From Candidatus Falkowbacteria bacterium (GTDB taxonomy: Bacteria > Patescibacteriota > Patescibacteriia > Patescibacteriales > UBA12075): a stretch of DNA of 35,687 nt. The notes beneath the pieces were generated by a model. That model was not told the DNA's origin, searched no databases, and saw only the letters and a list, made by a program, of their open reading frames with translations. The DNA lies in contig JAUVLY010000001.1 in assembly GCA_030600505.1 (NCBI GenBank), positions 1 to 35,687 on the forward strand, in the 5' to 3' direction. Both the position numbers and the translations under genes were made by a program. Shown piece after piece: positions 945 through 16,469 of this stretch (within the stretch, counting starts at the first letter, position 1; every line of letters begins with the position of its first letter).

Positions 945-1673
945 TTAGTCAAGTGAGCAATTAAAGATTAAATATATCGGAAAATTATTGTATCTTTCTA
1001 GAAATTTGTTTGTATTCTCATTTCTGGGCTTAGTAGGTTTGCATTCATCCATATTATCAACCCTGAGGCCTGAACTGACAATTAGATTAAAATAATCGCT
1101 AATTTTTCTATGATAATCTTCAAATAGAAAATTGCTATTATCAAATTTTTGTGAAACCCTGAATTTTACTTCTGATTTAAAATAACCCTGAAAATTTACT
1201 TTTACATCATTTCTTGTAAATAAAAATTTTTGCATATAATGATTAAAGCCTGGGTGTCCAACGCTAATAACAAGACGGCCATCCTTTTTCATTAAGCTCC
1301 TCATTTTCTTTAAAGTTTTTTTTATTTCTGCTTTTTCCCGAATAGCCGGCAAAACCATGCTTAGAATAATGAAATCGAATTTATAGTTGGTTTTGTTTTT
1401 GAAACTAGACGTATTGGCTACGAAAAAATTTGCCTCAGGGTATGTTTCCTTGGCCGAAGTAATCATATCTTCTGATACGTCAAAACCATAATAATTATAG
1501 CCCAGTTTTTTCGCAATTGAAAAAATATCTCCTCGACCACAACCTGCGTCAAGGAGTCTTATTTTGTTACCTTTCTTCTCTTTTATCGCCCTTTTTATTC
1601 CCGGGAACAAAATGTATTGATTTACTTTTCTTGGTTTGTAATTTTTTGCTGATTTGCCGTAGTATTCTTGCAT
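945..1673 (-). CDS. class I SAM-dependent methyltransferase
   Basis: 242-aa ORF with motif I RLLDAGCGRGD and an acidic post-I residue (YYGFDVSEDM). Divergent from the radical-SAM operon. Confidence 0.8.
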   Translation of the reverse strand: MQEYYGKSAKNYKPRKVNQYILFPGIKRAIKEKKGNKIRLLDAGCGRGDIFSIAKKLGYNYYGFDVSEDMITSAKETYPEANFFVANTSSFKNKTNYKFDFIILSMVLPAIREKAEIKKTLKKMRSLMKKDGRLVISVGHPGFNHYMQKFLFTRNDVKVNFQGYFKSEVKFRVSQKFDNSNFLFEDYHRKISDYFNLIVSSGLRVDNMDECKPTKPRNENTNKFLERYNNFPIYLIFNCSLD

Positions 1674-1751: not shown

Positions 1752-1780
1752 TTGCTATTTTAATTATTTTGTGTTATAGT
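1752..1780 (+). promoter_or_regulatory. putative promoter of the radical-SAM/WD40/glutaredoxin operon
   Basis: TTGCTA (1752-1757), 17-nt spacer, TATAGT (1775-1780) preceded by TGT (extended -10). The RBS-like AGAGAGGA lies just before the ATG at 1825. Confidence 0.45.
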
Positions 1781-1824
1781 ATTTTATTGCACATTAACAT
1801 TTTAAACATAAAGAGAGGATAATC

Positions 1825-2823
1825 ATGAAATATATTGATTCTGATAAACTGGCAAAGGGATTAAGAAAAAGGCTTGTTAATTTAAACGATAAAAAAGTTT
1901 TAATTGCACAACTTCTGGAAACAGAAGAAGAAAAAGATAGTTATACAAAAGTAAATTGCCATGGCTTCGGACGCATAAGAAGTTTTTCTAATTATTCCTT
2001 ACACCTTAGAAATTCGCAAAAGAATAAAAACGAACAAATTAAACCATTGTTAAGAGGGTGCGACAATAGCAAGGTATTGCTCGCGCAGGCTTTTCAGATC
2101 GCAGGTTGTAATTGGAATTGTTGGTATTGTTTTGTTGATATGTCTCGGAGAATAGCTCAAATTAAAAATGGGGAGTATTTTTCCGCGAGTGAGCTCGTTG
2201 GCATGTTTTTGGCTGTAGAAGACATTAATATTCTTGATTTAACCGGTGGACAACCAGACCTTGTTCCTGAATGGATTCTTTGGGTTATGGAAGAGCTTGA
2301 TAAGAGAAATTTAAGGAATAAAATATTTCTCTGGGTCGATGACAACTTAAGTACTGATTATTTTTGGAAATACTTAAATGACGGACAGATAGAATATATA
2401 ACAAAATTTCCAAAGCATTCAAGGGCTGGTTGTTTTAAGGGTTATGACGAAAGCTCCTTCTCCTTTAATACCGGAGTAAGTTCAAGATTGTTTCAAAGAC
2501 AATTTGATTTATTCAAGCGTTTTATTAAAGAAGGCATGGACATGTACGCGTATGTCACGTTCACAAACAAAGAAGATATCCATCTGGATAGGAATATAAA
2601 ACTTTTTATGGACAGACTACAACGCCTACACCATAACCTTCCCCTAAGGACAATCCCTTTAAAAATCGTTTCTTTCTCGGCAGTTCGTTCATCAAATCAA
2701 GAAAATTTTAGCCATGCTTTAACTTTTCAATTTGAAGTTTACAGCGCTTGGCAAAATGAGCTGTACAATAGGTTTGACTCAAGAGAAATAGACCTGCCAT
2801 ACGAAAAAATATCATTAGCTTAA
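1825..2823 (+). CDS. radical SAM enzyme (activase/QueE-like core, unassigned subfamily)
   Basis: 332-aa ORF. CX3CX2C cluster motif AGCNWNCWYCF. GGE-like SAM motif LTGGQPDL. About 95-aa N-terminal extension. No C-terminal Cys cluster, so no SPASM/twitch domain. Confidence 0.8.
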   Translation: MKYIDSDKLAKGLRKRLVNLNDKKVLIAQLLETEEEKDSYTKVNCHGFGRIRSFSNYSLHLRNSQKNKNEQIKPLLRGCDNSKVLLAQAFQIAGCNWNCWYCFVDMSRRIAQIKNGEYFSASELVGMFLAVEDINILDLTGGQPDLVPEWILWVMEELDKRNLRNKIFLWVDDNLSTDYFWKYLNDGQIEYITKFPKHSRAGCFKGYDESSFSFNTGVSSRLFQRQFDLFKRFIKEGMDMYAYVTFTNKEDIHLDRNIKLFMDRLQRLHHNLPLRTIPLKIVSFSAVRSSNQENFSHALTFQFEVYSAWQNELYNRFDSREIDLPYEKISLA

Positions 2824-2832
2824 TAGGAGGTC

Positions 2833-4617
2833 ATGATGAATAAATATTATTCCCTCACACAGACATTGCAATGCGGCCATGCTTCATCTCAAAAAATTGC
2901 TATTTCAAGTGATGGTGTCTTTCTTGTTTCGGGACTATGGAGCGGCATAATTGACATTTGGCAATTATCTTCAAATGCAATACTTTACCGATATAACGAA
3001 CATTCCGAAGCAATTACTGATTTAGCAGTAACGCATGATAAAAAGGTAATTTCAGCTTCTTACGATGGTGATATTTGTATCTGGGATATAGACATGGGAG
3101 AAAGGATTTATAAAACCAAAAAATTCGGAGTAATCAAAAAAATAATTATATCCGATGACGGCGAATATGTCGGCCTTGTTAACTCAAGTAACAGGATAAG
3201 GTTTTTAAACCTTAATGATTTTAGAGATGATTTTTCAATATCAACCAAGACAAGAGAGATTACAAGTATAATTTCTCACAAAAATGGAAAATACTATATC
3301 ATTGGTTCGTTTACGGGCGAAATAGAGATTTGGGATAATCAAAATTTCAGAAGTATTTGTATGTTTAGGGCTCATAATGAACCGATTACAGGTTTAACAA
3401 CAGACATACAAGGTACAATATACTCAGCATTTTGGGACTGTACGGTAAAAGCATGGGATATTAATTGGCTTCAAAAAGTCAAGCAGAAAGGTGTTTTTAA
3501 AGGACACTCAAGTTGGATTTTAGACATTGACGTTGCAGCTGACAACACGCTGATTACATGCTCAACAGATAGGACGATCAGAACATGGGACATTGCGAAA
3601 TATTCGGAAAAAGAAGTGCTATTCGGCCATGCCGCCCCCGTTATATCCATATCCATATTTTTACCAGAACAAACTATCATATCAAGTTCAGCTGACCATA
3701 CCATAAAAATCTGGGAGAGAGAAAGAAATTGCAAGGAAGATCAATTCCACAAAAATTCAGTCTGGGGAGTAAAATTCGATTCAAAAAGCAAAACGGTTAT
3801 TTCTTCATCGGCAGACAGATCTATTGGTCTTTATTGGCTAGACAGCAAAAAATGCAAACAACTAAACGGTCATCGAAGTTGGGTAAATAATTCTTCTATT
3901 TCCCATAAAGGAGATTTTGCGATATCAGCCTCGGCTGATAATCAGCTAATGATTTGGGATATCGAATCAGGATGCCGCACGAATACCCTGCTGGGACATT
4001 CAAGGTGGGTAAACGATGTTGTGATTTCCCAAAATGATATGATCGCAATTTCTGGATCGGCTGACAGGACTGTACGAGGATGGGATTTGAAAAGTAAGGT
4101 CGAAAAATTTTTATTAATTGGACACAAATGTCAAGTAACTTCAGTTGACTTAACGAGTGATAATTCTCTGGCTATTTCTGCTTCCGCTGACCATACCATA
4201 AAAATTTGGAGACTTTCTGATCAGAAAAATATCAAAACTTTAACTGGCCACAATGGGGCCGTAACTTCAATTTCTCTGGCGCATGAGAGTAATATTATTA
4301 TCTCCGGCTCCTTGGACGGATCACTTAGATTATGGGATTTTAAAAACCATAATGAATCCGAAATTCTTCAAAACGACGTTCAGAGAATTTGGTATGTTTC
4401 AATAACACCAAATGCCGAAAGGGCTGTATCTATTTCCGGAATGTTTATATATTTATGGGATGTCAAAAATAAAACCTTAATATACAAACATGCCAACAAG
4501 TGCATTTTTACAGCCTGCGCCATTTCGCCCGACGGGAGACTGTTTATCGGCGCCGATTTATTTGGCAAACTTCACTTATTTGGTGTTAAAAAGGAGAAAA
4601 AAATTGGCACAATATGA
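2833..4617 (+). CDS. WD40-repeat protein, about 14 repeats (two 7-bladed propellers predicted)
   Basis: 594-aa ORF. I count 14 repeat ends of type IxIW[DEQR] (IWQL, IWDI, IWDN, AWDI, TWDI, IWER, IWDI, GWDL, IWRL, LWDF, LWDV and others), several preceded by GH. AGGAGG lies at 2825-2830, so the second ATG at 2836 may be the real start. Confidence 0.85.
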   Translation: MMNKYYSLTQTLQCGHASSQKIAISSDGVFLVSGLWSGIIDIWQLSSNAILYRYNEHSEAITDLAVTHDKKVISASYDGDICIWDIDMGERIYKTKKFGVIKKIIISDDGEYVGLVNSSNRIRFLNLNDFRDDFSISTKTREITSIISHKNGKYYIIGSFTGEIEIWDNQNFRSICMFRAHNEPITGLTTDIQGTIYSAFWDCTVKAWDINWLQKVKQKGVFKGHSSWILDIDVAADNTLITCSTDRTIRTWDIAKYSEKEVLFGHAAPVISISIFLPEQTIISSSADHTIKIWERERNCKEDQFHKNSVWGVKFDSKSKTVISSSADRSIGLYWLDSKKCKQLNGHRSWVNNSSISHKGDFAISASADNQLMIWDIESGCRTNTLLGHSRWVNDVVISQNDMIAISGSADRTVRGWDLKSKVEKFLLIGHKCQVTSVDLTSDNSLAISASADHTIKIWRLSDQKNIKTLTGHNGAVTSISLAHESNIIISGSLDGSLRLWDFKNHNESEILQNDVQRIWYVSITPNAERAVSISGMFIYLWDVKNKTLIYKHANKCIFTACAISPDGRLFIGADLFGKLHLFGVKKEKKIGTI

Positions 4618-4915
4618 TGAAAAAAAAATTAAACAATATATTCAAAAAAGAAGAGTCACTCTCTTTATGAACGGCGAGGAAACAAGCCCAAAATGCTGGT
4701 TTTCGCTTTGCGCAATTGAGATATTAAAAATGTGCAATACTGAATTCCACGCAATTAATATTTTAGAAAGACCTGCGATGTGCGACTTCGTAAAAAAATA
4801 TTCAAGCTGGCCGATGTTTCCTCAACTATTCATTGACGGTGAATTTATTGGAGGAAGCCACATAATGATTGAAATGTATCAATCTGGCAATCTGCAAAAA
4901 ATAATCCACAATTAA
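4604..4915 (+). CDS. monothiol glutaredoxin (Grx4/GrxD-like) with CWFS active site
   Basis: VTLFMNGEETSPKCWFS...WPMFPQLFIDGEFIGGSHI matches the monothiol Grx pattern (canonical CGFS). TTG start at 4604 is preceded by AAGGAG (4591-4596). It overlaps the WD40 stop by 14 nt. The first in-frame ATG (4667) would delete the conserved beta-1 strand. Confidence 0.75.
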   Translation: MAQYDEKKIKQYIQKRRVTLFMNGEETSPKCWFSLCAIEILKMCNTEFHAINILERPAMCDFVKKYSSWPMFPQLFIDGEFIGGSHIMIEMYQSGNLQKIIHN

Positions 4916-4940
4916 AACCTCTTGCAAATTAGAGGTCAAA

Positions 4941-4974
4941 AAGGCATTCGAGTAATACTACGAATGCCTTTTAA
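4941..4974 (+). terminator. operon-end hairpin
   Basis: AAGGCATTCG (4941-4950) pairs with CGAATGCCTT (4961-4970), then TTTT. A smaller hairpin ACCTCT/AGAGGT (4916-4938) precedes it. Confidence 0.55.
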
Positions 4975-5091
4975 AATAAATAAAACTTTATTCAAATCAC
5001 ATGCCAAGAAAAATTGACAAGAGAAAAAATAATGGTGGAGCTAGGTGGGGTGTCGGAAGGCCTTTCGGCCCAAATCTACAACCCGCAGAAA

Positions 5092-5126
5092 CAAATAAAA
5101 AACACTGGCAAAAGCCAGTATTTTTT
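5092..5126. terminator. bidirectional hairpin terminator (ends the minus-strand tRNA transcript)
   Basis: ACTGGC (5104-5109) pairs with GCCAGT (5114-5119). T-run 5121-5126 on the + strand. On the minus strand it is followed by GUUUUUUAUUU. Confidence 0.6.
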
Positions 5127-5253
5127 ATTTGCTCCCGGGGTCGGATTCGAACCGACGACCAATTGGTTACACTTTACCCCCTGGTTTCCCAGAGGAGTGG
5201 ACTATATCATCATCCTTTGATTAAAATAAGGATGCGAGGCGCTTCCCCCTACC

Positions 5254-5290
5254 TCACCCCAGCCCTCTCCTTCTAAAGGAGAGGGGGTGA
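5254..5290. repeat. GC-rich nested palindrome (REP-like) inside the intron periphery
   Basis: CCCTCTCCTT (5263-5272) pairs with AAGGAGAGGG (5276-5285). Outer pair TCACC (5254-5258) with GGTGA (5286-5290). Same word family as 18211-18280. Confidence 0.6.
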
Positions 5291-5429
5291 AATAAGAGTA
5301 CTCTCTTTCGAGATAGTCTCTGAACCTGCCCCGATTGCTCGGGGATTGGCTGCTGATTACCTTGTCCATTAAAGACGATAAGAGATTTAGGCTTCCAGAC
5401 AGTTCACCTCGTTATTCGACCATGATTGC

Positions 5430-5738
5430 TCATGGAAGCTGCGTTAACCGTTCGTGCACTTCTCGATGGCAATTGGCGCATAATAATTCACATTTATCTA
5501 ACTCTTTTTTAACTTCTTTCCAGCTTCTGGTATATCCTTTAGCTGATATTCCGAAGTCTTTATTATTTTCATCAGTATGATGAAAATCAAGAGCTTGGAT
5601 GCATTTATTATACCCACAAATTGTACATTGAGCGCCTTTGTATTCAATTGCCATTCGGCGGATTTTTTTCCGCCGTTTTGTAACAGCCATTTTTAAATAC
5701 TCAGCACGATCGGCATAAGTACGATTATCCTTTGCCAT
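5430..5738 (-). CDS. HNH homing endonuclease (intron-encoded)
   Basis: 102-aa ORF with a Cys-pair zinc knuckle and HNH core: CTICGY...LDFHHTDENNKDFGIS...LLCANCHREVH. Lies entirely inside the intron. Confidence 0.85.
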   Translation of the reverse strand: MAKDNRTYADRAEYLKMAVTKRRKKIRRMAIEYKGAQCTICGYNKCIQALDFHHTDENNKDFGISAKGYTRSWKEVKKELDKCELLCANCHREVHERLTQLP

Positions 5739-5863
5739 ATTTTTTATAAGGAAAGGCGATTAGTGTACACAGCCAACTGCGCTACCGCTGCGCTACCCGG
5801 GAATAATTGATTGTTAATTTATGTTTATTTTAAACATAAAACCTGCCCTTTGGCAGCGCTTAT

Positions 5864-5892
5864 ATAATACATAATTATTTTAAAATAGTCAA
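5864..5892 (-). promoter_or_regulatory. putative promoter of the tRNA-Asn gene
   Basis: Minus strand reads TTGACT (5887-5892), 17-nt spacer, TATTAT (5864-5869), about 60 nt upstream of tRNA position 1. Confidence 0.4.
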
Positions 5893-5992
5893 CAATTTAA
5901 TTCAAAATTTTTTATACATTTTATTAATATAGTGATATAATATAAATTATTAAATTTATAATTACAAAAATTAAGATAATAAAAAATTCTTT

Positions 5993-8512
5993 ATGAATAT
6001 GTCTTATCTAGCATATTTATTTTTTTTGGTGTTAATTGCCAGCGTATATTTATTTATTAAAGCCAGTGCTTCCAAATTAAATAAGCTTGTTTTTAGCATA
6101 TTAATATTTGTTTTGTATATTTATATTTTATTATACTTAATCGCGGATTATTTTACTGACAATGGTTTTGATAGCGCCGTCATATATCATCTTAAATATG
6201 GCTTAAGCGGAGCCGGCTTTGGTGAATACTGGAAGCTAATTTTGGCTTCTATTTTTTATATTTTATTTGGCCTGGCAGCAGCGTATTGGATATATTCAAA
6301 AAAAATTAAAACTAGATCTAAGGGGATTATTTTTGTTTACGCCGCGTATCTACTGATAATAATGGCTTTTTTATCTAACCCCCTGACAATTGATTTATAT
6401 AATTATTACCAGACCCTGCATCCGCCAGACAACATGGCTGATTTTAATGAATTTTATAAGCAGCCAAAATTGCAGCATATTGCCGATAGTAAAAATTTAG
6501 TGCTTATCTATGCCGAGGGTTTGGAGCGGACGTACTTTGACGAGGCAATTTTCCCCGGCTTAATAAAGGAGTTACGGGAACTAGAGGGCAAAAGTACATA
6601 TTTTACCAACATCAAAACTTTGGAGGGTTTTAAATCAACCATGGGCGGGGTGGTAGCCAGCCATTGTGGTATTTCCTTGTCTAGCCCGGGTGGTTTCAAT
6701 AATGTAACAGGCATGAAAGAATTTCTTCCCTCAGCCACTTGCCTGGGTGATTTACTCAAACAAGAAGATTATTATTTAACTTATTTTGGCGGCGCGGATT
6801 TAACTTTCGCCGGAAAAGGAAAATTTTACTCAACTCATAAATTCGACGAGATCTATGGTTCAAACGAACTAATGCCCAGGCTGGAAAATAGCCGTTATCA
6901 TAATCCTTGGGGGCTATATGACGATTCATTATTTGAAATTGCATATCAACGCTTTATTGAATTGTCAGCCACCGAAGAAAAGCATGCCCTTTTTCTGTTA
7001 ACCTTTGATACTCACCATCCGACCGGACACCCCTCCGGAAGCTGCCGGCAAATTAAATATAATGATGGCTCTAATCCAATTCTAAACGCGGTCGCCTGTT
7101 CAGATTATTTAATTTCCAAATTCGTTAACCAAATTTTAGCCTCTCCCTACGGCTCCGAAACTGTAGTAGTCGTAGTATCGGATCATTTAGCGATGAGAAA
7201 TACGGCCACCGAGCTTCTGCACCAAGGGGACAGAAAGAATCTTTTTATGATCATTTCACCCGGCGCAAGCGATGCCATGAAAATAGAAAACTTAGGTTCA
7301 GCCCTTGATATAGGAGCTACTATACTGCCTTTTATGGGTTATAGATCTTCTATTGGCCTGGGCCGGGATTTAATGGATGCTGGCCAAACAACATCAGAGG
7401 TTAATCTGATACATGTTAACCTGCCCTATTGGAATCAGCCAATATCCCAGTTTTGGGATTTTCCGATTATTCAGCAATCTGTAGAAATAGATATTATAAA
7501 TAACGCAATGAGCATTGACGGTAGGCCATTTCCCATTCCGGCTTTGGTACAGTTTGATGATGAGCTTCAAACATCTATAAAGTTTGGCAGTAGTGAGGAT
7601 TTATTTGACAACGCTTTATCAATAGATAAAAATACTTTTTTTCTTTTAATCGATAAATTTAAAGGCTCTGATTATTATCTAATAATTGGTAAAGGGGATA
7701 GGCAGCTCAAAAAAGATAAAATTGAAAGCAATATAAAACTGACGGTTGATGATATTATAAATATTATCGGAATTGCGCAGGGAGCGCCTCTTCCGGCAAC
7801 TAAATCAACATTTCAAGTCCATCGGGTCGCCCATGCCGGCGGAGGAATTGATGGCCGGACTTATACCAACAGTATTGACGCGCTGGATTATAATTTAAAA
7901 AATGGCTTTTCGTATTTTGAGATAGATTTTTCTTTTACTAGCGACGGACATTTAGCGTGTCTTCATGATTGGCAAGAAAACTTTGAAAAAATATTTGGAT
8001 TTGAAACAAAAAATAGCTTATCATTAGAATCGTTTAAATCCCTTGTCAATAATTCCGGGCTAAAAAACTGTACCCTTGATAGTTTGGTAGACTGGATGCA
8101 GAAGAATCCATCTTCATTCATAGTTACAGACGTTAAGGATGACAATATAAGGGCTTTGCAAATTATGGCTGAAATTGTGCCTGATTACGCTAGTAGAATA
8201 ATTCCTCAAATATATTATCCTCAAAATTATGACAAGGTTAGGGGCATGGGTTACGAGCAAATTATTTGGACTCTTTATCGTTATAATGCGACCAATAGCC
8301 ACGTCTTGTGGTGGGCTGATACTTTTAGCGGTCCATTTGCCATTACTATGCCCAGAGAACGGCTTGAAAAATTTTTAGTAAATAGCCTTAGAAAGAAACA
8401 AATACCGTTTTATGTGCATACGGTAAATACGGTTGAGGAAGAGCATGATATTATAGATGTTTACGGAGCATCAGAGATCTATACAGACTATTTACATCCC
8501 AAGTCCTATTGA
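5993..8512 (+). CDS. membrane phosphoglycerol-transferase (OpgB/LtaS-type sulfatase fold) fused to a glycerophosphodiester phosphodiesterase-like domain
   Basis: 839-aa ORF. About 5 N-terminal TM helices. LIYAEGLERTYFDE...GGVVASHCG...FDTHHPTGH resembles OpgB/MdoB. The C-terminal roughly 230 aa has HRVAHAGGG...YFEIDFSFTSDGHLACLHDW (GDPD/PLC-like TIM barrel). Confidence 0.65.
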   Translation: MNMSYLAYLFFLVLIASVYLFIKASASKLNKLVFSILIFVLYIYILLYLIADYFTDNGFDSAVIYHLKYGLSGAGFGEYWKLILASIFYILFGLAAAYWIYSKKIKTRSKGIIFVYAAYLLIIMAFLSNPLTIDLYNYYQTLHPPDNMADFNEFYKQPKLQHIADSKNLVLIYAEGLERTYFDEAIFPGLIKELRELEGKSTYFTNIKTLEGFKSTMGGVVASHCGISLSSPGGFNNVTGMKEFLPSATCLGDLLKQEDYYLTYFGGADLTFAGKGKFYSTHKFDEIYGSNELMPRLENSRYHNPWGLYDDSLFEIAYQRFIELSATEEKHALFLLTFDTHHPTGHPSGSCRQIKYNDGSNPILNAVACSDYLISKFVNQILASPYGSETVVVVVSDHLAMRNTATELLHQGDRKNLFMIISPGASDAMKIENLGSALDIGATILPFMGYRSSIGLGRDLMDAGQTTSEVNLIHVNLPYWNQPISQFWDFPIIQQSVEIDIINNAMSIDGRPFPIPALVQFDDELQTSIKFGSSEDLFDNALSIDKNTFFLLIDKFKGSDYYLIIGKGDRQLKKDKIESNIKLTVDDIINIIGIAQGAPLPATKSTFQVHRVAHAGGGIDGRTYTNSIDALDYNLKNGFSYFEIDFSFTSDGHLACLHDWQENFEKIFGFETKNSLSLESFKSLVNNSGLKNCTLDSLVDWMQKNPSSFIVTDVKDDNIRALQIMAEIVPDYASRIIPQIYYPQNYDKVRGMGYEQIIWTLYRYNATNSHVLWWADTFSGPFAITMPRERLEKFLVNSLRKKQIPFYVHTVNTVEEEHDIIDVYGASEIYTDYLHPKSY

Positions 8513-8700
8513 GGCGGATAGACAAGTTTTTTATATAGTCCCGGGCACTCGGGATTTTTTTATTTATTTGTTAATGGTTTTTTATATATGTCTGTGGTTT
8601 ATTGGCATTTTATTGATAATTTTTGACTTGACAGAAAAGGGCAAAAATGCTATTTTATTTACTTGTTCATATTAAAAAATCAAAAAAAAGGAGAGGAAAA

Positions 8701-9006
8701 ATGATTAGTCCGAAAAACTTTCGTATTAAGATGGAAGTAAAAAAATTTTCCATACCGGTACCAAAAAATGCAAAGGCAGCGGGTTATATTCACATTAGCC
8801 ATTATCACCCGTTTTTACAGGTCCTAGCTGATTTTGACCAACCAGCAACCGAGACAATAGACCTTCTTCTGCTTACTGAAGAAGAACCGGCCATTAAAGC
8901 CGAGTTAGTTATCGAAGGAAAAAATGAGTTAATTGGCTATGGAAGTGATGATCTAAAATTCATAGGTTATCATAATGGATATCATATCCTGAAAATACTA
9001 AAGTAG
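8701..9006 (+). CDS. hypothetical protein
   Basis: ATG at 8701 is preceded by AAAGGAGAGGAAAA. 101 aa. Strong terminator follows. The 8647 start offered by the ORF track lacks an RBS. Confidence 0.6.
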   Translation: MISPKNFRIKMEVKKFSIPVPKNAKAAGYIHISHYHPFLQVLADFDQPATETIDLLLLTEEEPAIKAELVIEGKNELIGYGSDDLKFIGYHNGYHILKILK

Positions 9007-9021
9007 CTTTTTTCGATTTAG

Positions 9022-9058
9022 CCGCATGTTTCTATCATAGATCATGCGGTTTTTTTTA
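9022..9058 (+). terminator. rho-independent terminator
   Basis: CCGCATG (9022-9028) pairs with CATGCGG (9043-9049), followed by a 9-T run. Confidence 0.7.
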
Positions 9059-9214
9059 TTTTTTTCAGACATAATTATTTGCCGCTACTTTGGTATTTAA
9101 GCTTTTATTTTTTGCTAATAATCAATAAGAAGGCTTGACTAAAGTTAATAAATAATATATTTTTATATTATATTTTGATCTTAAACAATATAAAGAAAAT
9201 GAAGGGAGGGAAAT

Positions 9215-10180
9215 ATGAAGAAACAACAATTAGCCGTGCCACCAGTTGCTCTCAGGCACGAAAAAGCGGTTAGAGAGATGTATAATATTTTAAGCTCGGT
9301 GCTTAAAGAGTGTGGCATAAACGAGTTAACCGAGGGCCGTTACCAGGGAAATCCGGCGCGAAGCTATGCTGTGGCCCAAGAACTGCAACAAGAATATTTA
9401 CTTAGGCTGGCCAGGCTTAAAACCGGGGACGAAATGCTTGACATCGGTTGCGGACATGGCCTTCTCTTGCAAGAGGCGAAAAGACAAGGCATTAGTGGCA
9501 AAGGAATTACTCTTTCGCAAAAGCAACTGGAAGATCATCAAGATCTTGATACCTGTCTGCTTAACTGGCGGAAAATTCCGGAAAAAATGCCTGGCTGGAA
9601 AAACCAGTTTGATGGAGTGTGTGCGATTGGTTCTTTGGAGCATTTTGTTTCTCCCCAGGAAGCGGCCGGGGGTATTAAAAACGATGTATATCTTGCCTTC
9701 TTTGAAGTTTGCCGCTGGCTACTTAAACCGGGCGGAAGATTAGTGGTTACCGCAATCCATTATTTGCCCAACATGATCCTTCGGCCAAAAATGGCGCGTA
9801 ACCAGTTCTTTGAACCTTGGCGGTGGTGTACTCCAGATTTTCATCTTGGTTCTGTGGCTTGGTTAGGAGGCGCTTATTACCCGACAGTGGGAGAGCTTGT
9901 TTCTATAGCCAAGCGGTGTGGTTTTCTACTTAACCGTGAAGAAGACGGAACTAAAGATTATTATCTGACCAGCGAAGTGTGGATAAAAAAAATAAGAAGC
10001 GCTTTGCTAAGATTGAAATTTTCAAAGGAAATTTTTAGTGGGTTTAAAAGTTACCCGCTTCATACAATTTATGGGTTTTTATGCATCGTTTTGTTCCAGT
10101 CCTGGAACTGGCAATTTCGTGATCAAAAAGGTCAGGGTCCGCCAACCCAGCTTATGCGCTACGTTTGGGAGCGTAAGTAA
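9215..10180 (+). CDS. cyclopropane-fatty-acyl-phospholipid synthase family SAM methyltransferase
   Basis: 321-aa ORF. AQELQQEYLLRLARLKTGDEMLDIGCGHGLLL...GKGITLSQKQ matches the CMAS/Cfa family layout. RBS GGGAGGG before the ATG. Confidence 0.7.
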   Translation: MKKQQLAVPPVALRHEKAVREMYNILSSVLKECGINELTEGRYQGNPARSYAVAQELQQEYLLRLARLKTGDEMLDIGCGHGLLLQEAKRQGISGKGITLSQKQLEDHQDLDTCLLNWRKIPEKMPGWKNQFDGVCAIGSLEHFVSPQEAAGGIKNDVYLAFFEVCRWLLKPGGRLVVTAIHYLPNMILRPKMARNQFFEPWRWCTPDFHLGSVAWLGGAYYPTVGELVSIAKRCGFLLNREEDGTKDYYLTSEVWIKKIRSALLRLKFSKEIFSGFKSYPLHTIYGFLCIVLFQSWNWQFRDQKGQGPPTQLMRYVWERK

Positions 10181-10210
10181 ATTTTTTAGAGACATGTTAT
10201 TATGTCTCAT

Positions 10211-10248
10211 CCTCACCCTAGCTAAGGCAAGCGGGTGGGGATTTTTTT
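10211..10248 (+). terminator. rho-independent terminator
   Basis: CCTCACCC (10211-10218) pairs with GGGTGGGG (10233-10240), then ATTTTTTT. Confidence 0.6.
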
Positions 10249-10304
10249 ATACCTTTTTTTAGTATAATTCTTGTAGTATAATGAGACTGTAGAATAATAT
10301 AGGT

Positions 10305-10961
10305 ATGAAAAACATTAAAGACAATGAGCCTTTGAGCAGCTTGACTCATTTATTTGGATTTATGCTCTCTATTGCCGGTCTGGTGCTAATGATAGTTATG
10401 GCCGTTAAATACAGTACTGCCTGGCATATAGTTTCGTTTTCTATTTTTGGAGCGAGCTTAATTTTGCTTTATTTGGCCAGCACGGTTTATCACTTTGTGC
10501 CCAAGTCCAATAAACATAAAAATACATTCCGAAGAATAGATTTGTCTTTCATATTTGTTCTGATTGCCGGCACCTATACTCCAATTGTCCTGGTCCCCTT
10601 AAGAGGAGCCTGGGGCTGGACAATTTTTGGGATTGTCTGGGGAATAGCCCTTGTTGGAGTAATTACCCAAATTTTCAAAATTAAGCTTAAGGCTTGGTCA
10701 ATGATCATCCTCTATATTTCTATGGGTTGGATTGTAATAATCGCTTTGCCGGCATTACTCGATTCATTATCTAGGGCAAGCTTTGCCTGGTTGCTCTCTG
10801 GCGGTATATTATATACGCTTGGGGTTATATTTTTGGTTTTAGACAAGGTACTGCCTCGTCATCGCTGGTTTGGTATGCACGAGATTTTCCATGTTTTCGT
10901 TTTAGCCGGAAGCTTTAGTCATTTTTGGTTAATGTATAAATATATCGTATATATCAACTAG
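10305..10961 (+). CDS. hemolysin III / PAQR family membrane protein
   Basis: 218 aa with seven predicted TM helices. SSLTHLFG near the N-terminus, STVYHF, and a C-terminal HEIFHVFVLAGSFSHF motif typical of the YqfA/HlyIII family. Confidence 0.8.
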   Translation: MKNIKDNEPLSSLTHLFGFMLSIAGLVLMIVMAVKYSTAWHIVSFSIFGASLILLYLASTVYHFVPKSNKHKNTFRRIDLSFIFVLIAGTYTPIVLVPLRGAWGWTIFGIVWGIALVGVITQIFKIKLKAWSMIILYISMGWIVIIALPALLDSLSRASFAWLLSGGILYTLGVIFLVLDKVLPRHRWFGMHEIFHVFVLAGSFSHFWLMYKYIVYIN

Positions 10962-11108
10962 AGAAGAAAAATACTTGATTTTATGTTGGGGTTTTTGTTT
11001 TAATTTATTCTGGTCTTAGTTTACGAAATAGACAAGTTAATTATTATATGCTATAAAATAATTATAATAAAAATAGATAGCCCATTCTAAAATTAAAGGA
11101 GGTTTGAT

Positions 11109-11408
11109 ATGGCCGCATTGATAATATCATTTGTTATTGGGGTTATTGGAGTTTTTCTTATCATCTATGCCTTTAGGCAGCTAGCCAAAATAAAAGTTTT
11201 CTATAAAGAAAGAAATTGGCGTTGGAGATTAATTCGTGTGATCCGTTTTGTTGTCAGTTTGGCAGTAGGTAGTATTTTTGTATTATTCTATATATTTATT
11301 CATACTGTCAAAGGAATTGACATGGAAATGATGTTGTTCTTATTTATTACGTCATTTCCGCTTGGCTTTTGTTGGGTAGCCATAGCTAACAAGGATGATT
11401 ATTGTTGA
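11109..11408 (+). CDS. small membrane protein, unknown function
   Basis: 99 aa with three hydrophobic segments. RBS AAAGGAGG before the ATG. Strong terminator follows. Confidence 0.6.
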   Translation: MAALIISFVIGVIGVFLIIYAFRQLAKIKVFYKERNWRWRLIRVIRFVVSLAVGSIFVLFYIFIHTVKGIDMEMMLFLFITSFPLGFCWVAIANKDDYC

Positions 11409-11431
11409 ATTAATAAGGTATATGCATTTGC

Positions 11432-11466
11432 AAGCCCTTCAGGGAACTGAGGGGCTTATTTTTTTT
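11432..11466 (+). terminator. rho-independent terminator
   Basis: AAGCCCTTCAG (11432-11442) pairs with CTGAGGGGCTT (11447-11457) around a GGAA loop, then a T-run (11459-11466). Confidence 0.8.
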
Positions 11467-11530
11467 ATTTATAAAATAAAACAGGCCAGTAGTGGTCTGT
11501 TTTTGGGAGAGCGAGCGTTTTTGTCCGGTC

Positions 11531-11576
11531 AAACACAAAAAAAATGCGTTGGGGTGATGTCCACCTCAACGCATTT
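11531..11576 (-). terminator. terminator of the 11599..11883 gene
   Basis: AAATGCGTTG (11542-11551) pairs with CAACGCATTT (11567-11576). On the minus strand it is followed by UUUUUUGUGU. Confidence 0.6.
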
Positions 11577-11598
11577 GTGTCCTTAATGCAGGATGTGC

Positions 11599-11883
11599 TT
11601 ATGAAATAAGTCTCTTTAAATGTTGCCCCATACCTTGGCCCAAACCGGCGCATGTATTAATTCCGCAATCAACCACGATCTGAAAGATGATTTTGTCTTC
11701 AGCCGGATCGGGGTTGTGCTCTTCGTCTGAGTAAGACACATGCATATGATCCATCCCTAATTCAACGATATTGTCGGGTTTATCAATATCGCTATTTCCC
11801 GGCTGATAAATATAAGCCCGGGTGCCGAAAAATAAAATTTTACTCTTCTCAATTAGACGCTGAAATTCAAGGTCTTCTGCCAT
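11599..11883 (-). CDS. hypothetical protein
   Basis: 94-aa ORF. AAGGAAGG lies upstream on the minus strand. Terminator downstream. No recognisable motif. Confidence 0.5.
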   Translation of the reverse strand: MAEDLEFQRLIEKSKILFFGTRAYIYQPGNSDIDKPDNIVELGMDHMHVSYSDEEHNPDPAEDKIIFQIVVDCGINTCAGLGQGMGQHLKRLIS

Positions 11884-12138
11884 GGCAATACCTTCCTTTG
11901 TTTAATGGTTAAAAGAACAAATTCCTTGCCAATACTAAGATATTATAATTCTCAATACTTTAAACTATTTTAAGATGTAAGTCAATGAATATTAGCTGAT
12001 AAAAACAATAAAACAGCCTTGAGTTCAGTTCTTGGGGCTGTTTTTTTGTATTTAAACAATCGGGTCATTTGCAGCAAATGGACCGATTATTTTATGATTG
12101 GCTTATAACCAGTCAAGAGTTATAAATATTGTGGGTGC

Positions 12139-12167
12139 TTGACAAATTTGCCAAAATGTGATATTTA
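12139..12167 (+). promoter_or_regulatory. putative promoter of 12229..12501
   Basis: TTGACA (12139-12144), 17 nt, TG-extended TATTTA (12162-12167). Confidence 0.45.
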
Positions 12168-12228
12168 TAAGATAGATTTAAAATAATAATAACAGAAAAA
12201 TAAAACTGAAAAAATAGTGGAGGGCAAA

Positions 12229-12501
12229 ATGTCAAAAAAAATTAAAAAGATAAAGAAGCAAAAAGCACAGCAGGCAAGGCTATTAAAAATTAAGAAAGAT
12301 CCTCAGGAAGAGAAGATAATAAAAATTAAGGAAACACAGGAATTGGGCAGTTGTATAGACCCGGAAATTGACAAAGCGGCTACCGCTATAGCGAATAAAG
12401 CTGTAGCGGGAGAGGGTATAGGAATTGACCACGCGGATTATCATAAAATTCATTTTAAGGCTTACGCCGATTACGTGTGTAGCTTACCACCAGCCCCTTA
12501 A
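12229..12501 (+). CDS. hypothetical Lys-rich protein
   Basis: ATG at 12229 is preceded by GGAGGG. 90 aa with a highly basic N-terminus (KKIKKIKKQK). Followed by three successive hairpins. Confidence 0.55.
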   Translation: MSKKIKKIKKQKAQQARLLKIKKDPQEEKIIKIKETQELGSCIDPEIDKAATAIANKAVAGEGIGIDHADYHKIHFKAYADYVCSLPPAP

Positions 12502-12521
12502 AAAAAATCAATTTATAACTC

Positions 12522-12558
12522 TCGTCCTGGATAAAGAGAATCCAGGACGATTTTTTTT
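12522..12558 (+). terminator. rho-independent terminator (first of three hairpins)
   Basis: TCGTCCTGGAT (12522-12532) pairs with ATCCAGGACGA (12540-12550), then an 8-T run. Further hairpins with T-runs lie at 12563-12599 and 12632-12658. Confidence 0.85.
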
Positions 12559-12669
12559 GAAAAAAGACAGCTAAGGGATTTAATCCGAAGCTGTCTTTTA
12601 AATTAAATATAAAATAAGCTAATATTTATAAAAAACTGCTAGTTTAAGCAGTTTTTTTGTTTTGTGCCA

Positions 12670-12698
12670 TTGACAAAATATTGATAATATGTTATTAT
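12670..12698 (+). promoter_or_regulatory. putative promoter of the LysM-RlpA gene
   Basis: TTGACA (12670-12675), 17 nt, TG-extended TATTAT (12693-12698). Confidence 0.45.
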
Positions 12699-12734
12699 GT
12701 TCAATTATTATAAAAAGTAAATATAATAAATATT

Positions 12735-13376
12735 ATGCTAAAAATAAATAAAAGATTGATTCAAGTCAGCCTTGTTACAGTATTTGGCGTAAGCTTAGTA
12801 TTGTTACTTGGCCAATTGGCTGCAATTAAAGTAATTGAATCTAAAAACAAGCAAAATCTTGTAGCTTCTGTTGCAACAGACGAGATTATGCCCAGAGAGA
12901 TTATTTACACAGTCCAGAAAGGTGATTCAGTTTTTCGAATCGCGCAAAAATATAAGGTTCATCGCTACCAGCTTAGAGCGTGGAATAATATAGATATTAG
13001 TAACTATATTTATCCCGGCCAGCATTTAATAATCAAGCAAGTTGATTATGAGCCAATGGAAGGCCTGGCCAGTTGGTATGGCCCGAATTTTCATGGACGA
13101 AATATGGCCAATGGGGAAGTATATGATATGCACGCTATTGTCGTGGCTCATCGTACTCTGCCTTTGGGACAGAAAGTTTTAATTACAAACCTGGAAAACG
13201 GACGCTCAATCGTCGCTCCGGTATTGGACCGCGGCCCTTATGTTAAGGATAGTCAGGGTAATTATACCCGCGAGATTGACCTTTCTTACGCGGTAGCGCA
13301 AAAGTTAGGGACAATTAAAAAAGGCGTGGTTTCCGCTCGGATTGAGCCGATAAATGAGCCTTTACCGCAGGATTAA
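12735..13376 (+). CDS. rlpA: LysM domain + RlpA-like double-psi beta-barrel (septal ring lytic transglycosylase family)
   Basis: 213 aa. N-terminal TM anchor. LysM (YTVQKGDSVFRIAQKY...YPGQHLII). DPBB core ASWYGPNFHGRNMANGEVYDMHAIVVAHRTLPLG...LDRGPY. Confidence 0.8.
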   Translation: MLKINKRLIQVSLVTVFGVSLVLLLGQLAAIKVIESKNKQNLVASVATDEIMPREIIYTVQKGDSVFRIAQKYKVHRYQLRAWNNIDISNYIYPGQHLIIKQVDYEPMEGLASWYGPNFHGRNMANGEVYDMHAIVVAHRTLPLGQKVLITNLENGRSIVAPVLDRGPYVKDSQGNYTREIDLSYAVAQKLGTIKKGVVSARIEPINEPLPQD

Positions 13377-13381
13377 TGTTG

Positions 13382-13437
13382 TTTTTGCTAGCGCAAAAAG
13401 CCGCAACCGCGAATGCGGCACATGCGAATTTAAAATT
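13382..13437 (+). repeat. two-hairpin + RCGAAT repeat, copy A
   Basis: Hairpin 1 is TTTTTGC-TAGC-GCAAAAA (13382-13399). Hairpin 2 is GCCGCA...TGCGGC (13400-13419). Then ACATGCGAAT (13420-13429) and TTAAAATT. Confidence 0.7.
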
Positions 13438-13473
13438 ATATTTTACTAAAATTATTGATTATATATATAAAAA

Positions 13474-13500
13474 ATTGCAGATTTAATCTGCAATTTTTTT
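13474..13500 (+). terminator. rho-independent terminator
   Basis: ATTGCAGAT (13474-13482) pairs with ATCTGCAAT (13486-13494), then a T-run. Confidence 0.8.
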
Positions 13501-13501
13501 A

Positions 13502-13530
13502 TTGACTTGTGTCAGCTATTTTGCTAGGAT
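13502..13530 (+). promoter_or_regulatory. promoter of 13572..13835 (paralogous to 13922-13950)
   Basis: TTGACT (13502-13507), 17 nt, TAGGAT (13525-13530). Similarity to the second copy extends about 25 nt further downstream. Confidence 0.55.
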
Positions 13531-13571
13531 GGGGGAATTAATGTAAACACAAATAATTGGGGAGGAAAATA

Positions 13572-13835
13572 ATGAAAATAGAAACTCAGATGGCGACCAT
13601 GGAAGGAAAACCGGGTGAACAAGAGGAAGCGCTATTGGCAAAATGGGACATAAAAAATGAACCAAGAAAAAGAATTGCTTGGAAAGCTAAAGTGATAGAG
13701 AGTATAGTCCATTTGCTGATTGAGCACGCTAGCCCAAAAGACTATATAAAAATAAACAAGGCAAAAGATAAAAAAAATAGGGGGGAAGCGAGCCGCAATA
13801 TAATTGCGAGAATCAGGGAGAGAGTCCAAAAATAA
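13572..13835 (+). CDS. hypothetical protein
   Basis: ATG at 13572 is preceded by GGGGAGGAAAA. 87 aa, charged, no motif recognised. Confidence 0.55.
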   Translation: MKIETQMATMEGKPGEQEEALLAKWDIKNEPRKRIAWKAKVIESIVHLLIEHASPKDYIKINKAKDKKNRGEASRNIIARIRERVQK

Positions 13836-13872
13836 AAGCGGTCTTTTAAAAAAATTGTTTATCATTTTAGAG

Positions 13873-13908
13873 CATCGTAGAGCTAAGCACTTTACGATGT
13901 TTTTGTTT
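13873..13908 (+). terminator. hairpin terminator
   Basis: CATCGTA (13873-13879) pairs with TACGATG (13893-13899), then TTTTTGTTT. Confidence 0.55.
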
Positions 13909-13921
13909 ACTTTTTTAATAT

Positions 13922-13950
13922 TTGACTTGTCTTAGTTATTTAGATAGGAT
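13922..13950 (+). promoter_or_regulatory. promoter of 14040..14561 (paralogous to 13502-13530)
   Basis: TTGACT (13922-13927), 17 nt, TAGGAT (13945-13950). Confidence 0.55.
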
Positions 13951-13979
13951 AAGATAATTAATATAAAAATAAATTTAAA

Positions 13980-14012
13980 CCCGCCTACGCATAAAGCTAC
14001 GGCGAGGCAAGC
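13980..14012 (+). repeat. short repeat also found in frame inside tatD (31770-31800)
   Basis: CCCGCCTACGCATAAAGCTACGGCGAGGCAAGC versus CCCTCCTACGC-TAAAGCTACGAAGGACAAGC. About 26 of 32 positions match by eye. Confidence 0.5.
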
Positions 14013-14039
14013 AAAAATAAAACAAAAAGGAGGCAGAGT

Positions 14040-14561
14040 ATGCCGCAATATGCACTGAAATTACAAGGAAGTAATTGGGAAGAACTTGAAAAAAAATTGT
14101 CATTCAAGGGGTCAATAAAAAAGCTCTTTGAGAAAGCTAAAGTCAAATTTACCAAATGGGAGGCTGAAAAAATCTTTTTCACTGATCCGGGAAATAAAGT
14201 TGGTAAAACAATAACTATGACAGGTTTTGTTTTCATGGACCCGGAAAAAGTTGGCAACTGGCAACCCATATGTTATGTTCATTTAAAAAATATGCGACCA
14301 AAGACAACAGAAAAGATAACCATCATGCCGTGTGGTAAAGTAATGAATTCGACTGATTTACCTGGGGGCAGGAAAATTAAAGCCGGGGAAAAATTTGATA
14401 TTATTGAGGCAATAAGAATTAAAAACGATTATGGTTCTGGTCCTTTTCTTTTGCTGGGGATTGAATATAAAAAAAAGCGATATAGACAAAATTTTAAATT
14501 TTTTCGTTTTGTAGATTATAACGGAAAAGAAAAGTATATTAACAAAGAGTATTGTTTTTAA
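14040..14561 (+). CDS. hypothetical protein
   Basis: 173 aa. RBS AAGGAGG 6 nt before the ATG. Strong terminator follows. No motif recognised. Confidence 0.6.
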   Translation: MPQYALKLQGSNWEELEKKLSFKGSIKKLFEKAKVKFTKWEAEKIFFTDPGNKVGKTITMTGFVFMDPEKVGNWQPICYVHLKNMRPKTTEKITIMPCGKVMNSTDLPGGRKIKAGEKFDIIEAIRIKNDYGSGPFLLLGIEYKKKRYRQNFKFFRFVDYNGKEKYINKEYCF

Positions 14562-14599
14562 TTGAGTTGATAAATATTGAAAAGTTATAAATAGTACAT

Positions 14600-14629
14600 G
14601 GCCTTCTGAGTAAAGAAGGCCGTTTTTTT
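14600..14629 (+). terminator. rho-independent terminator
   Basis: GGCCTTCT (14600-14607) pairs with AGAAGGCC (14614-14621), then GTTTTTTT. Confidence 0.85.
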
Positions 14630-14645
14630 ATTTGCTTTTTTTAAT

Positions 14646-14674
14646 TTGACTATTTAGCTAATTTTAAGTAAAAT
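14646..14674 (+). promoter_or_regulatory. putative promoter of the ZIP transporter gene
   Basis: TTGACT (14646-14651), 17 nt, TAAAAT (14669-14674). Confidence 0.5.
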
Positions 14675-14704
14675 TTAAATATTAGTCATAAATTTTAAAT
14701 TTAT

Positions 14705-15445
14705 ATGTCAATTTTACTTTGGATAATATTGGCGACTGTAGCCATGAGCGCGGTTTCTTTGGTCGGGGCGCTGGCCCTGGTATTAAAGGAGAATATCTTA
14801 AAAAGAATAATTAAGCCTTTGGTGGCTTTTTCTGCCGGTTCGCTACTCGGTGGCGCCTTCCTCCACCTCTTACCCGAAGCGCTGGAAGAATCCGGTGAGA
14901 TTAACAAGATATTTATAATTTTGCTTACCGGCTTTGCCGTCTTTTTCCTGCTTGAGCAATTTATCCATTGGCATCACTGCCATCGCATGCCCTCGGAGCA
15001 TAAGCATCCGGTAACATATTTAATATTAATTTCCGATGGGGTGCATAATTTTCTTGACGGGCTGGCCATCGGCGCCGCTTTTGTTATTGATGTTCGCTTG
15101 GGTATGGCCACGACTCTGGCCATTGCCATGCACGAGATCCCACAGGAGTTGGGGGATTTTGGCATTTTGATCCACGGCGGTTGGAAAAAAGCCAAAGCGC
15201 TTTTGTTTAATTTTTTCTCCGGTTTGACCGCGGTCGCGGGCGGAATTATTGCTTGGCTATTGGCCGGAAACATTGAAATTGTGTATTTACTGCCGTTTGC
15301 GGCCGGTAATTTTATCTATATTGCCGCCTCAGACCTGATCCCGGAAATTAAACACCACGACTTTGCCAGCCGCAACGTTTTACATTTCCTGGCTTTTGTT
15401 CTTGGAATTGGGTTTATGTATTTGATTTTGTTTATTGAAATCTAA
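14705..15445 (+). CDS. zupT: ZIP family divalent-metal transporter (ZupT-like)
   Basis: 246 aa, multi-TM. His-rich loop HWHHCHRMPSEHKH. ZIP signature HEIPQELGDFGILIHGG. Confidence 0.85.
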   Translation: MSILLWIILATVAMSAVSLVGALALVLKENILKRIIKPLVAFSAGSLLGGAFLHLLPEALEESGEINKIFIILLTGFAVFFLLEQFIHWHHCHRMPSEHKHPVTYLILISDGVHNFLDGLAIGAAFVIDVRLGMATTLAIAMHEIPQELGDFGILIHGGWKKAKALLFNFFSGLTAVAGGIIAWLLAGNIEIVYLLPFAAGNFIYIAASDLIPEIKHHDFASRNVLHFLAFVLGIGFMYLILFIEI

Positions 15446-15449
15446 AATT

Positions 15450-16415: not shown

Positions 16416-16427
16416 ATAAATAATAAT

Positions 16428-16469
16428 AAAAAAACTAGCCTATGGGTGTGGATTTACCCATAGGCTTTT
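16428..16469. terminator. bidirectional terminator between convergent genes
   Basis: AGCCTATGGGT (16437-16447) pairs with ACCCATAGGCT (16456-16466), flanked by an A-run on the left and a T-run on the right. Confidence 0.75.

Follow-up and report, generated by a model that had tools for sequence, protein, structure and literature searches.

Gene organization of the module

The window analysed here is the whole stretch of 35,687 nucleotides (nt) at the start of contig JAUVLY010000001.1, from Candidatus Falkowbacteria bacterium (assembly GCA_030600505.1), a member of the candidate phyla radiation (CPR). It carries a tight module of three genes on the forward strand, which encode a radical S-adenosylmethionine protein (radical SAM, rSAM), a WD40-repeat protein and a small glutaredoxin (Grx)-fold protein. 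A methyltransferase gene diverges from the module. The rSAM protein belongs to an uncharacterised family, which falls into two clades, A and B, with different gene partners; the WD40 and Grx-fold genes accompany clade B. The module was confirmed to be real and conserved, and it has apparently not been described before. Its features are given below, with protein lengths in amino acids (aa).

945 to 1673, reverse strand: class-I SAM methyltransferase gene, 242 aa, divergent from the rSAM gene
1752 to 1780, forward strand: promoter-like site TTGCTA-17-TATAGT with TG upstream, a 9/12 consensus match
1789 to 1802, forward strand: conserved block GCACATTAACATTT, between the -10 hexamer and the ribosome-binding site
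1825 to 2823, forward strand: rSAM gene, 332 aa, clade B of the uncharacterised rSAM family
2825 to 2830, forward strand: Shine-Dalgarno site AGGAGG of the WD40 gene, inside a 9-nt gap
2833 to 4617, forward strand: WD40 gene, 594 aa, 14 repeats (Pfam and repeat model)
4591 to 4596, forward strand: Shine-Dalgarno site AAGGAG of the Grx-fold gene
4604 to 4915, forward strand: Grx-fold gene, TTG start, 103 aa, derived from the CGFS family and carrying CWFS
4917 to 4936 and 4939 to 4972, forward strand: two terminal hairpins, a probable terminator by fold energy

All four reading frames were found again where the initial annotation had placed them. The rSAM stop codon (TAA, 2821–2823) is followed after 9 nt by the WD40 ATG at 2833. 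The WD40 stop codon (TGA, 4615–4617) lies beyond the Grx TTG at 4604, which gives an overlap of 14 nt. The gap, the overlap and both Shine-Dalgarno sites, all proposed earlier, could be read directly in the sequence. The orthologous locus L001 has the identical 14-nt WD40/Grx overlap in its called genes.

The proposal that the module has its own promoter at 1752–1780 was only partly borne out. Alignment of the upstream regions showed that both hexamers are kept in L001, and partly in L171. Against this, the site matches the consensus at only 9 of 12 positions in an AT-rich region, and 26 sites of this type were found where 15.5 were expected. The best-kept stretch upstream of the rSAM gene, in an alignment of the window with L001, L171 and L172, is the block GCACATTAACATTT. 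It may be an operator, a leader or a 5′-untranslated-region element. At the other end, the hairpins claimed at 4916–4974 are present and fold at −25.6 kcal/mol (z = −7.5). A simple terminator scan missed them on the forward strand; they are probably the terminator of the module. Base composition gave no sign of a recent acquisition, as the GC fraction of the module (0.36) is the same as that of the window.

The radical-SAM protein

The cluster motif of the rSAM protein, CNWNCWYC (C95, C99 and C102), has the canonical CX3CX2C form, and the GGQP motif for SAM lies at residues 141–144. Both motifs, which had been recognised at the outset, are invariant in 65 homologues, and the cysteines also in a set of 163. 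The protein has no C-terminal SPASM/twitch cysteine cluster, because its sole further cysteines are C45, C79 and C203. The cysteine inventory thus agrees with the initial annotation; among these three, C45 and C203 are conserved. The N-terminal extension of about 90 aa bears an invariant NCxGxGR motif. About 60 residues are invariant throughout the family, including NCxGxGR, DDNLS, GCFKG, LPLRTxPL and many Arg and Lys residues.

Membership of the rSAM superfamily is certain. The Pfam model PF04055 (Radical_SAM) gave 26.3 bits, below its gathering score of 29.5, because the family has diverged too far for this generic model; the motifs and the fold are those of the superfamily. An AlphaFold2 model built on 65 homologues reached a predicted local distance difference test score (pLDDT) of 93. 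In a Foldseek search, its best matches in the PDB were generic rSAM cores (PFL-AE, MqnE, anSME, QueE and LipA).

No specific Pfam or NCBIfam family was found for the protein, and a sequence search of the PDB was empty. The NCBIfam models for ordinary subfamilies (ArsS, NrdG, QueE, PflA, viperin and MoaA) scored at most 25 bits (14–25 bits for ArsS, NrdG, QueE, viperin and MoaA) against cut-offs of 126–300, and these matches covered the cluster-binding segment only. The profile and structure searches suggested with the initial annotation therefore separate the protein from QueE, NrdG, PflA and viperin, and return only the generic core. The protein has more than 2000 full-length homologues, each about 330 aa long and labelled 'hypothetical', 'radical SAM protein' or similarly generically. 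A profile of the family gave only 563 matches among 1.84 billion representative proteins, which indicates a compact family, well apart from other rSAM enzymes. A relation to the rSAM enzymes of phage thymidine hypermodification was rejected, since 50,697 phage genomes gave 0 matches and IMG/VR gave 1 close and 3 distant ones. A search of the BFVD viral structures with the rSAM model returned generic matches only.

Two gene contexts of the radical-SAM family

The neighbourhood survey comprised about 165 loci: 80 from species-representative genomes, 80 from metagenomes, and further contigs obtained by exact protein look-up. Their reading frames were tagged by iterated profile searches. The rSAM gene occurs in two mutually exclusive contexts, type A (about 150 loci) and clade B (18 loci from at least four phyla). 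The clade-B loci are the window, L001, L171 and L172, all of Patescibacteria type; those of the named hosts Solirubrobacter, Nocardia asiatica, Actinoplanes, Paenibacillus aceti and a Piscirickettsiaceae metagenome-assembled genome (MAG); and L089, L091, L169, L174–L177 and L184–L186.

The type A context is a cassette of seven genes, which encode DUF6932, an XRE regulator (about 490 aa, with an HExxH motif), DUF4186, the rSAM protein, a DPPW methylase-like protein, an ASCH protein and a P-loop kinase (about 185 aa). The methylase-like protein (433 aa, p433) has an invariant DPPWY and a weak RsmD-like match in the PDB at the DPPW motif. The PDB sequence search with DUF4186 was empty. The kinase is of nucleotide-kinase type and is present in 113 type A loci. 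The cassette is widespread in bacteria, occurs in some archaeal MAGs and has been found on conjugative plasmids (examples are L052 at 7427–13374, L182 and L183). It appears not to have been described previously. None of its partner genes lies beside the rSAM gene of the window, and none of the type A loci has WD40, Grx, ThyX or folate genes. DUF4186 and the rSAM protein may share one reading frame in some type A loci, as a candidate fusion. In L052, genes for a Piwi-domain protein (prokaryotic Argonaute-like, 752 aa) and a PD-(D/E)XK nuclease directly adjoin the cassette (4222–7313, reverse strand).

A neighbour-joining tree of 163 rSAM sequences placed all WD40- or Grx-linked proteins in one clade of 13 tips, inside which the window protein groups with L001, L171 and L172. 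The window protein (P0001) scored 134 bits higher with a clade-B hidden Markov model (HMM) than with the clade-A HMM. By the same type of score, 44 of the 120 best database matches were assigned to clade B. Clades A and B share the family-wide invariant residues, and only two alignment columns are clade-specific. This implies that the radical step is probably the same in both.

A Grx-fold gene, a WD40 gene or both adjoin the rSAM gene in 17 of the 18 clade-B loci, and a WD40 orthologue does so in 16. In the exception, L091, the sequence begins at the rSAM gene, so that the upstream side is not covered. The gene order is shuffled: rSAM-WD40-Grx, (TIR-)WD40-rSAM-Grx, rSAM-Grx-WD40 and GrxWD40-rSAM were all found. 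In seven loci (L089, L169, L175, L176, L184, L185 and L186), the Grx-fold domain is in frame with the N-terminus of the WD40 protein. The recurrence of the gene set in unrelated genomes excludes a chance adjacency. The shuffled synteny and the domain fusion over at least four phyla are strong evidence that the three genes are one functional unit, as had been supposed from their arrangement in the window; they are probably a physical unit as well.

A small protein (115–166 aa) recurs beside the GrxWD40 and rSAM genes, with the motifs GNCRRAVQ, SLHTAIYTG and EIWHA (L184 10140–10568; L175 7130–7636, reverse strand; L176 8459–8845, reverse strand). The classification of this protein (p115/p142) as NlpC/P60-like found no backing in Pfam or in the PDB profile search and was dropped.

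WD40 and glutaredoxin-fold proteins

The product of the second gene is certainly a WD40 protein. Pfam WD40 gave 221 bits over nine stretches. A purpose-built repeat HMM detected 13 repeats, to which a C-terminal unit at 546–590 is added. This agrees with the 14 repeats counted initially and, as far as the sequence goes, is consistent with two seven-bladed propellers. Pfam revealed no further domain, so the description as a pure WD40 protein holds. Hypervariability of this protein was considered and rejected: among close relatives, its identity (75%) is about the same as that of the rSAM protein (77%).

The fold of the third protein is clear. Its alignment with GrxS14, Grx4 and Grx5 spans the full length (E down to 1e-25), with CWFS in place of CGFS, as the initial annotation had noted for this monothiol Grx4/GrxD-type protein. 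It narrowly misses the equivalog test for the Grx4 family (TIGR00365, 114.8 bits against a cut-off of 117.1). The active-site cysteine is retained, and the glycine next to it is replaced by tryptophan. Two other motifs are also changed relative to Grx4 and Grx5, MKG to MNG and GGCD to GGSH. These are positions that we take to be the glutathione contacts in the Grx4 and Grx5 structures.

Among 14 aligned Grx-fold partners, only the three CPR-type copies have the active-site cysteine (PKCWFS). The other 11 are cysteine-less, with PRSPAS, PRTAHS, PRGPRS, PKDKFS, PIDRFS, SITNAS and the like at this site, and retain FPQLFVDGEFIGG. All of these retain (W/F)PQLFVDGEFIGG...E...SGEL, and the GEFIGG motif is strongly kept among the Grx-fold partners. 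The loss of the cysteine in most partners means that the servicing of an Fe-S cluster, which had been assigned to the Grx at first, is not the conserved role; the altered MNG and GGSH motifs of the window protein point the same way. The conserved role of the domain is probably structural or ligand-binding rather than thiol or Fe-S chemistry, as far as residue conservation can tell. The WD40 proteins of Paenibacillus aceti (L005) and L174 (711–718 aa) were also tagged as Grx-bearing by jackhmmer, and this tag failed in the alignment.

The divergent methyltransferase

The protein encoded at 945–1673 matches the Pfam families Methyltransf_23, 31, 11 and 25. In L171 (60% identity) and L172 (52%), orthologues are found in the same divergent place, and L176 has a distant full-length homologue. 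Only nine members of the family were found in 5.8 billion proteins, so the methyltransferase appears to be specific to the module. It is probably a fourth component in the CPR lineage, a possibility that the initial annotation had raised. The nearest structures to its AlphaFold2 model (pLDDT 82) are small-molecule N-methyltransferases: ToxA, glycine N-methyltransferase (GNMT), XrdM and CcbJ.

Thymidylate, folate and mobile-element neighbours

Clade B is specifically linked to ThyX, to genes of de novo folate synthesis and γ-glutamyl metabolism, and to nucleotidases. These counts refer to 16 of the clade-B loci. ThyX is present in seven of them, as compared with none of 150 type A loci (Fisher p = 2e-8), and any folate or thymidylate gene in nine, again against none of 150. 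One of the two clade-B loci fetched later, L186, has ThyX too. The other neighbours are FolP and FolC-like proteins (four loci each); PabB or PabAB, gamma-PGA hydrolase and 5′-nucleotidases (three each); FolE, FolB, GGT and circularly permuted ATP-grasp proteins (two each); and NUDIX (one). FolK and FolA were not among the annotated genes of the clade-B folate clusters. The linked ThyX is canonical (255 bits to PDB 6j61).

ThyX immediately adjoins the rSAM gene in L013, L091, L175 and L176. The Actinoplanes locus (L016) is a tight operon of rSAM, Grx, WD40, PabAB, gamma-PGA hydrolase, FolC, FolE, a 397-aa protein and ThyX. The Paenibacillus locus reads FolB, FolP, NUDIX, rSAM, FolC, GGT, ATP-grasp, an unnamed protein, FolC, FolC and WD40.

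Many clade-B loci lie in mobile or defence-rich DNA. Integrases, relaxases and transposases were found there, together with AbiJ, TIR, SNF2/N6-methylase/ResIII, Dcm/HD-CE/ATPase and PRTase-CE/ORC-CDC6-like genes. In L176, a TIR protein, UCP014422, an M78 peptidase, Nmad2, MazG_C and HMUDK_hel lie beside the module (12025–18619), the last three being annotated as associated with nucleotide or DNA-base modification. In L186, an N6/N4 methylase, PRTase-CE and ORC-CDC6-like genes follow ThyX downstream of the module (13489–17945), and in L091, HD-CE, ATPase and Dcm genes do so (2110–6862).

Proposed function and alternatives

With these results in hand, we propose a tentative reading, to which we give somewhat less than an even chance. 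The module would be a mobile rSAM system that acts on a small molecule of nucleotide or folate type, and the Grx-fold and WD40 proteins would be its non-redox adaptor or regulator. The radical step is probably common to both clades and probably has a universal molecule, not clade-specific partner proteins, as its target. The nucleotide and folate genes of clade B, the nucleotide-kinase-like gene of type A and the small-molecule fold of the methyltransferase together point to a small, anionic metabolite. The earlier suggestion that the propellers present a macromolecular substrate found no support.

The proposed mechanism would start with the 5′-deoxyadenosyl radical, with which the rSAM protein would perform one conserved radical step on this metabolite. 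A pyrimidine nucleotide or a one-carbon compound of the pterin/folate type would be the likeliest substrate. The invariant C45 and C203 could be relay residues for a hydrogen atom or a methylene group. The Grx-fold/WD40 protein would dock on the rSAM enzyme as an adaptor or regulatory subunit, and it might recognise a partner protein or a ligand of γ-glutamyl type. Given the recurrent γ-glutamyl enzymes, it is tempting to suppose that the Grx fold binds such a ligand. The ToxA/GNMT-like methyltransferase of the CPR lineage might methylate the substrate or the product. The end use could be metabolic, as a supply or bypass of thymidylate or folate on mobile elements, or defensive, through a nucleotide-analogue effector.

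A fuller version of this reading seems doubtful to us. It would make the family a first sighting of an rSAM family with two architectures, of which clade B joins a cysteine-less Grx-fold/WD40 subunit to a novel radical step in thymidylate/folate-linked one-carbon or pyrimidine-nucleotide metabolism and has spread on mobile elements from CPR bacteria to actinomycetes. Possible outcomes would then be a mobile bypass or remodelling of folate or deoxythymidine monophosphate, or a nucleotide or pterin analogue for use in conflicts.

Several points weigh against the small-molecule reading. The functional steps, the choice of substrate included, are all argued from guilt by association. Proteins and nucleic acids are more usual ligands of WD40 propellers than small molecules are. 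The window holds no ThyX or folate gene within its 35 kb, so that the methyltransferase is the module's only companion in this CPR genome; L184, L169 and L089 also have the bare module only. Type A has no folate genes and yet the same active site, so that folate may be a mere supply line in some clade-B loci. The CPR Grx keeps its cysteine, so that a redox or cluster role may persist in that lineage. Finally, clade B was sampled at no more than 18 loci, and the tree was built by simple neighbour joining.

The main competitor, which we consider unlikely though not negligibly so, is an anti-phage or conflict system. The WD40 protein would sense a component of the invader and switch on the rSAM enzyme, which, like viperin, would produce a toxic or chain-terminating nucleotide; ThyX, nucleotidases and kinases would supply or process this nucleotide. 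Such a role would suit the patchy, horizontally transferred distribution across phyla and the defence-type genes, integrases and relaxases around clade-B loci. The type A XRE-HExxH regulator and kinase also recall the kinase-associated pVips, and weak pVip matches were obtained in PADLOC and NCBIfam. However, these span the cluster motif only (19–25 bits), and PADLOC-DB v2 gave no system match for the window proteins, only weak generic ones (pVip at 19 bits, the WD40 protein in a HEAT-ARM model, and mad2 through the methyltransferase core). The WD40 protein, diverging at about the rate of the rSAM protein, is not hypervariable as a sensor might be. The full PabAB-FolC-FolE-ThyX operon looks metabolic, and the module of the window is flanked by envelope housekeeping genes.

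The machine proposed in the initial annotation, in which a double propeller presents a protein or RNA for modification and a monothiol Grx loads or repairs the 4Fe-4S cluster of the rSAM enzyme, now appears improbable. It draws on the tight, translationally coupled operon, on the cysteine and the near-threshold Grx4-family score of the window Grx, and on the type A partners ASCH and DPPW methylase-like protein, both usually linked to nucleic acids. It is also backed by analogy with the eukaryotic Elp2/Elp3, Cia1 and Dph1-2/Dph3/Dph7. These points are offset by the cysteine-less state of most orthologous Grx-fold partners and by the tryptophan and altered MKG and GGCD motifs of the window Grx. 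Moreover, no conserved gene is a candidate for the macromolecular substrate, and the methyltransferase fold is of the small-molecule type. We rate as more improbable still that the rSAM enzyme has its own partner protein as substrate and installs a radical or a post-translational modification there, the target being the Grx-fold/WD40 protein in clade B and DUF4186 in type A. An activase, PFL-AE, is indeed the best structural match, weak NrdG matches exist, and the candidate type A fusions of DUF4186 to the rSAM protein would fit; the small partner always adjoins the rSAM gene or is in frame with the WD40 gene beside it, and GEFIGG is strongly kept in the Grx-fold partners. But DUF4186 and the Grx fold have no detectable similarity, although a single rSAM active site serves both clades; as a disguised analogue of the Grx fold, DUF4186 reached an hhalign probability of only 0.1%. 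There is no glycyl-radical signature, and the link to ThyX and folate would be left unexplained.

Surroundings in the window

The genes around the module are of envelope-housekeeping type. The gene at 5993–8512 encodes an 839-aa membrane protein with a sulfatase/LTA-synthase-like domain and a C-terminal glycerophosphodiester phosphodiesterase domain. A tRNA gene split by a group I intron (Rfam RF00028, 79 bits, 5178–5509) lies at 5130–5803 on the reverse strand, convergent with the terminator of the module. An open reading frame in the intron region (5430–5738) is HNH-like, with a CANCHREVH motif. ARAGORN found a tRNA in 433 of 500 candidates spliced in silico, and the anticodon varied with the exact splice junction.

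Novelty and significance

Full-text literature searches found no description of the triad, the rSAM family, the type A cassette, or DUF4186 and DUF6932 in such a role. One genome paper merely lists the type A genes within an 18-kb plasmid insertion. The initial annotation had likewise not recognised the triad from any described pathway or defence system.

If the small-molecule reading is true, a previously unknown radical reaction on mobile DNA would be added to nucleotide and folate metabolism, a major area of antibiotic targets. In bacteria, the module would also exemplify an rSAM enzyme whose β-propeller partner is obligate, and its Grx-fold subunit would show the monothiol-glutaredoxin fold re-used as a non-redox adaptor. 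More than 2000 unnamed rSAM proteins would gain a first functional lead, as would the type A cassette of conjugative plasmids, with its roughly 150 loci. Because cultivable hosts exist (Nocardia asiatica, Solirubrobacter phytolaccae and Paenibacillus aceti), a direct test is feasible.

Comparison with known systems

Eukaryotic cells have assemblies that combine an rSAM-type enzyme, a WD40 scaffold, a small redox or metal protein and a methyltransferase, as in Elp3/Elp2, the cytosolic Fe-S assembly targeting complex with Cia1, and Dph1-2/Dph3/Dph7. The parallels drawn with Elp2/Elp3 and Cia1 in the initial annotation stand as analogy only; detectable homology with the window proteins is limited to the generic WD40 and rSAM folds.

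The activases PFL-AE and NrdG resemble the rSAM protein of the window in having a compact core with no auxiliary-cluster domain, and PFL-AE is its best Foldseek match (3c8f, E = 5e-6, TM 0.65 on the target). The window protein differs from them in its N-terminal extension with NCxGxGR and in its invariant GCFKG; it scored 22.3 bits against the NrdG/PflA activase cut-off of 126, and the surveyed loci (about 165) contain no glycyl-radical enzyme. QueE is also among the structural matches (5th5). It is an rSAM enzyme whose substrate is a pterin derived from GTP, and its genes are grouped with those of FolE and T-fold enzymes, much as clade-B loci carry FolE, FolB and FolP. In contrast, TIGR03963 (QueE) gave only 20.8 bits for the window protein against a cut-off of 260.1, and the annotated clade-B neighbourhoods have ThyX, FolC and γ-glutamyl enzymes instead of any QueC- or QueD-family gene. 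Viperin and the pVips share with the present family the weak database matches, a mobile or defence-island context and accessory nucleotide kinases, and they are rSAM enzymes that act on nucleotides. They differ in their partner set, and NF038283 reached 17.5 bits against a cut-off of 180, over residues 93–160 only.

The CGFS glutaredoxins Grx4, GrxD and Grx5 align with the window Grx over the full length, close to the family threshold. It differs from them in CWFS, MNG and GGSH, and its orthologous partners differ in being mostly cysteine-less and in seven cases in frame with WD40. The type A cassette has an entirely different partner set and is itself uncharacterised, but it shares with clade B the same rSAM family, some 60 common invariant residues and mobility.

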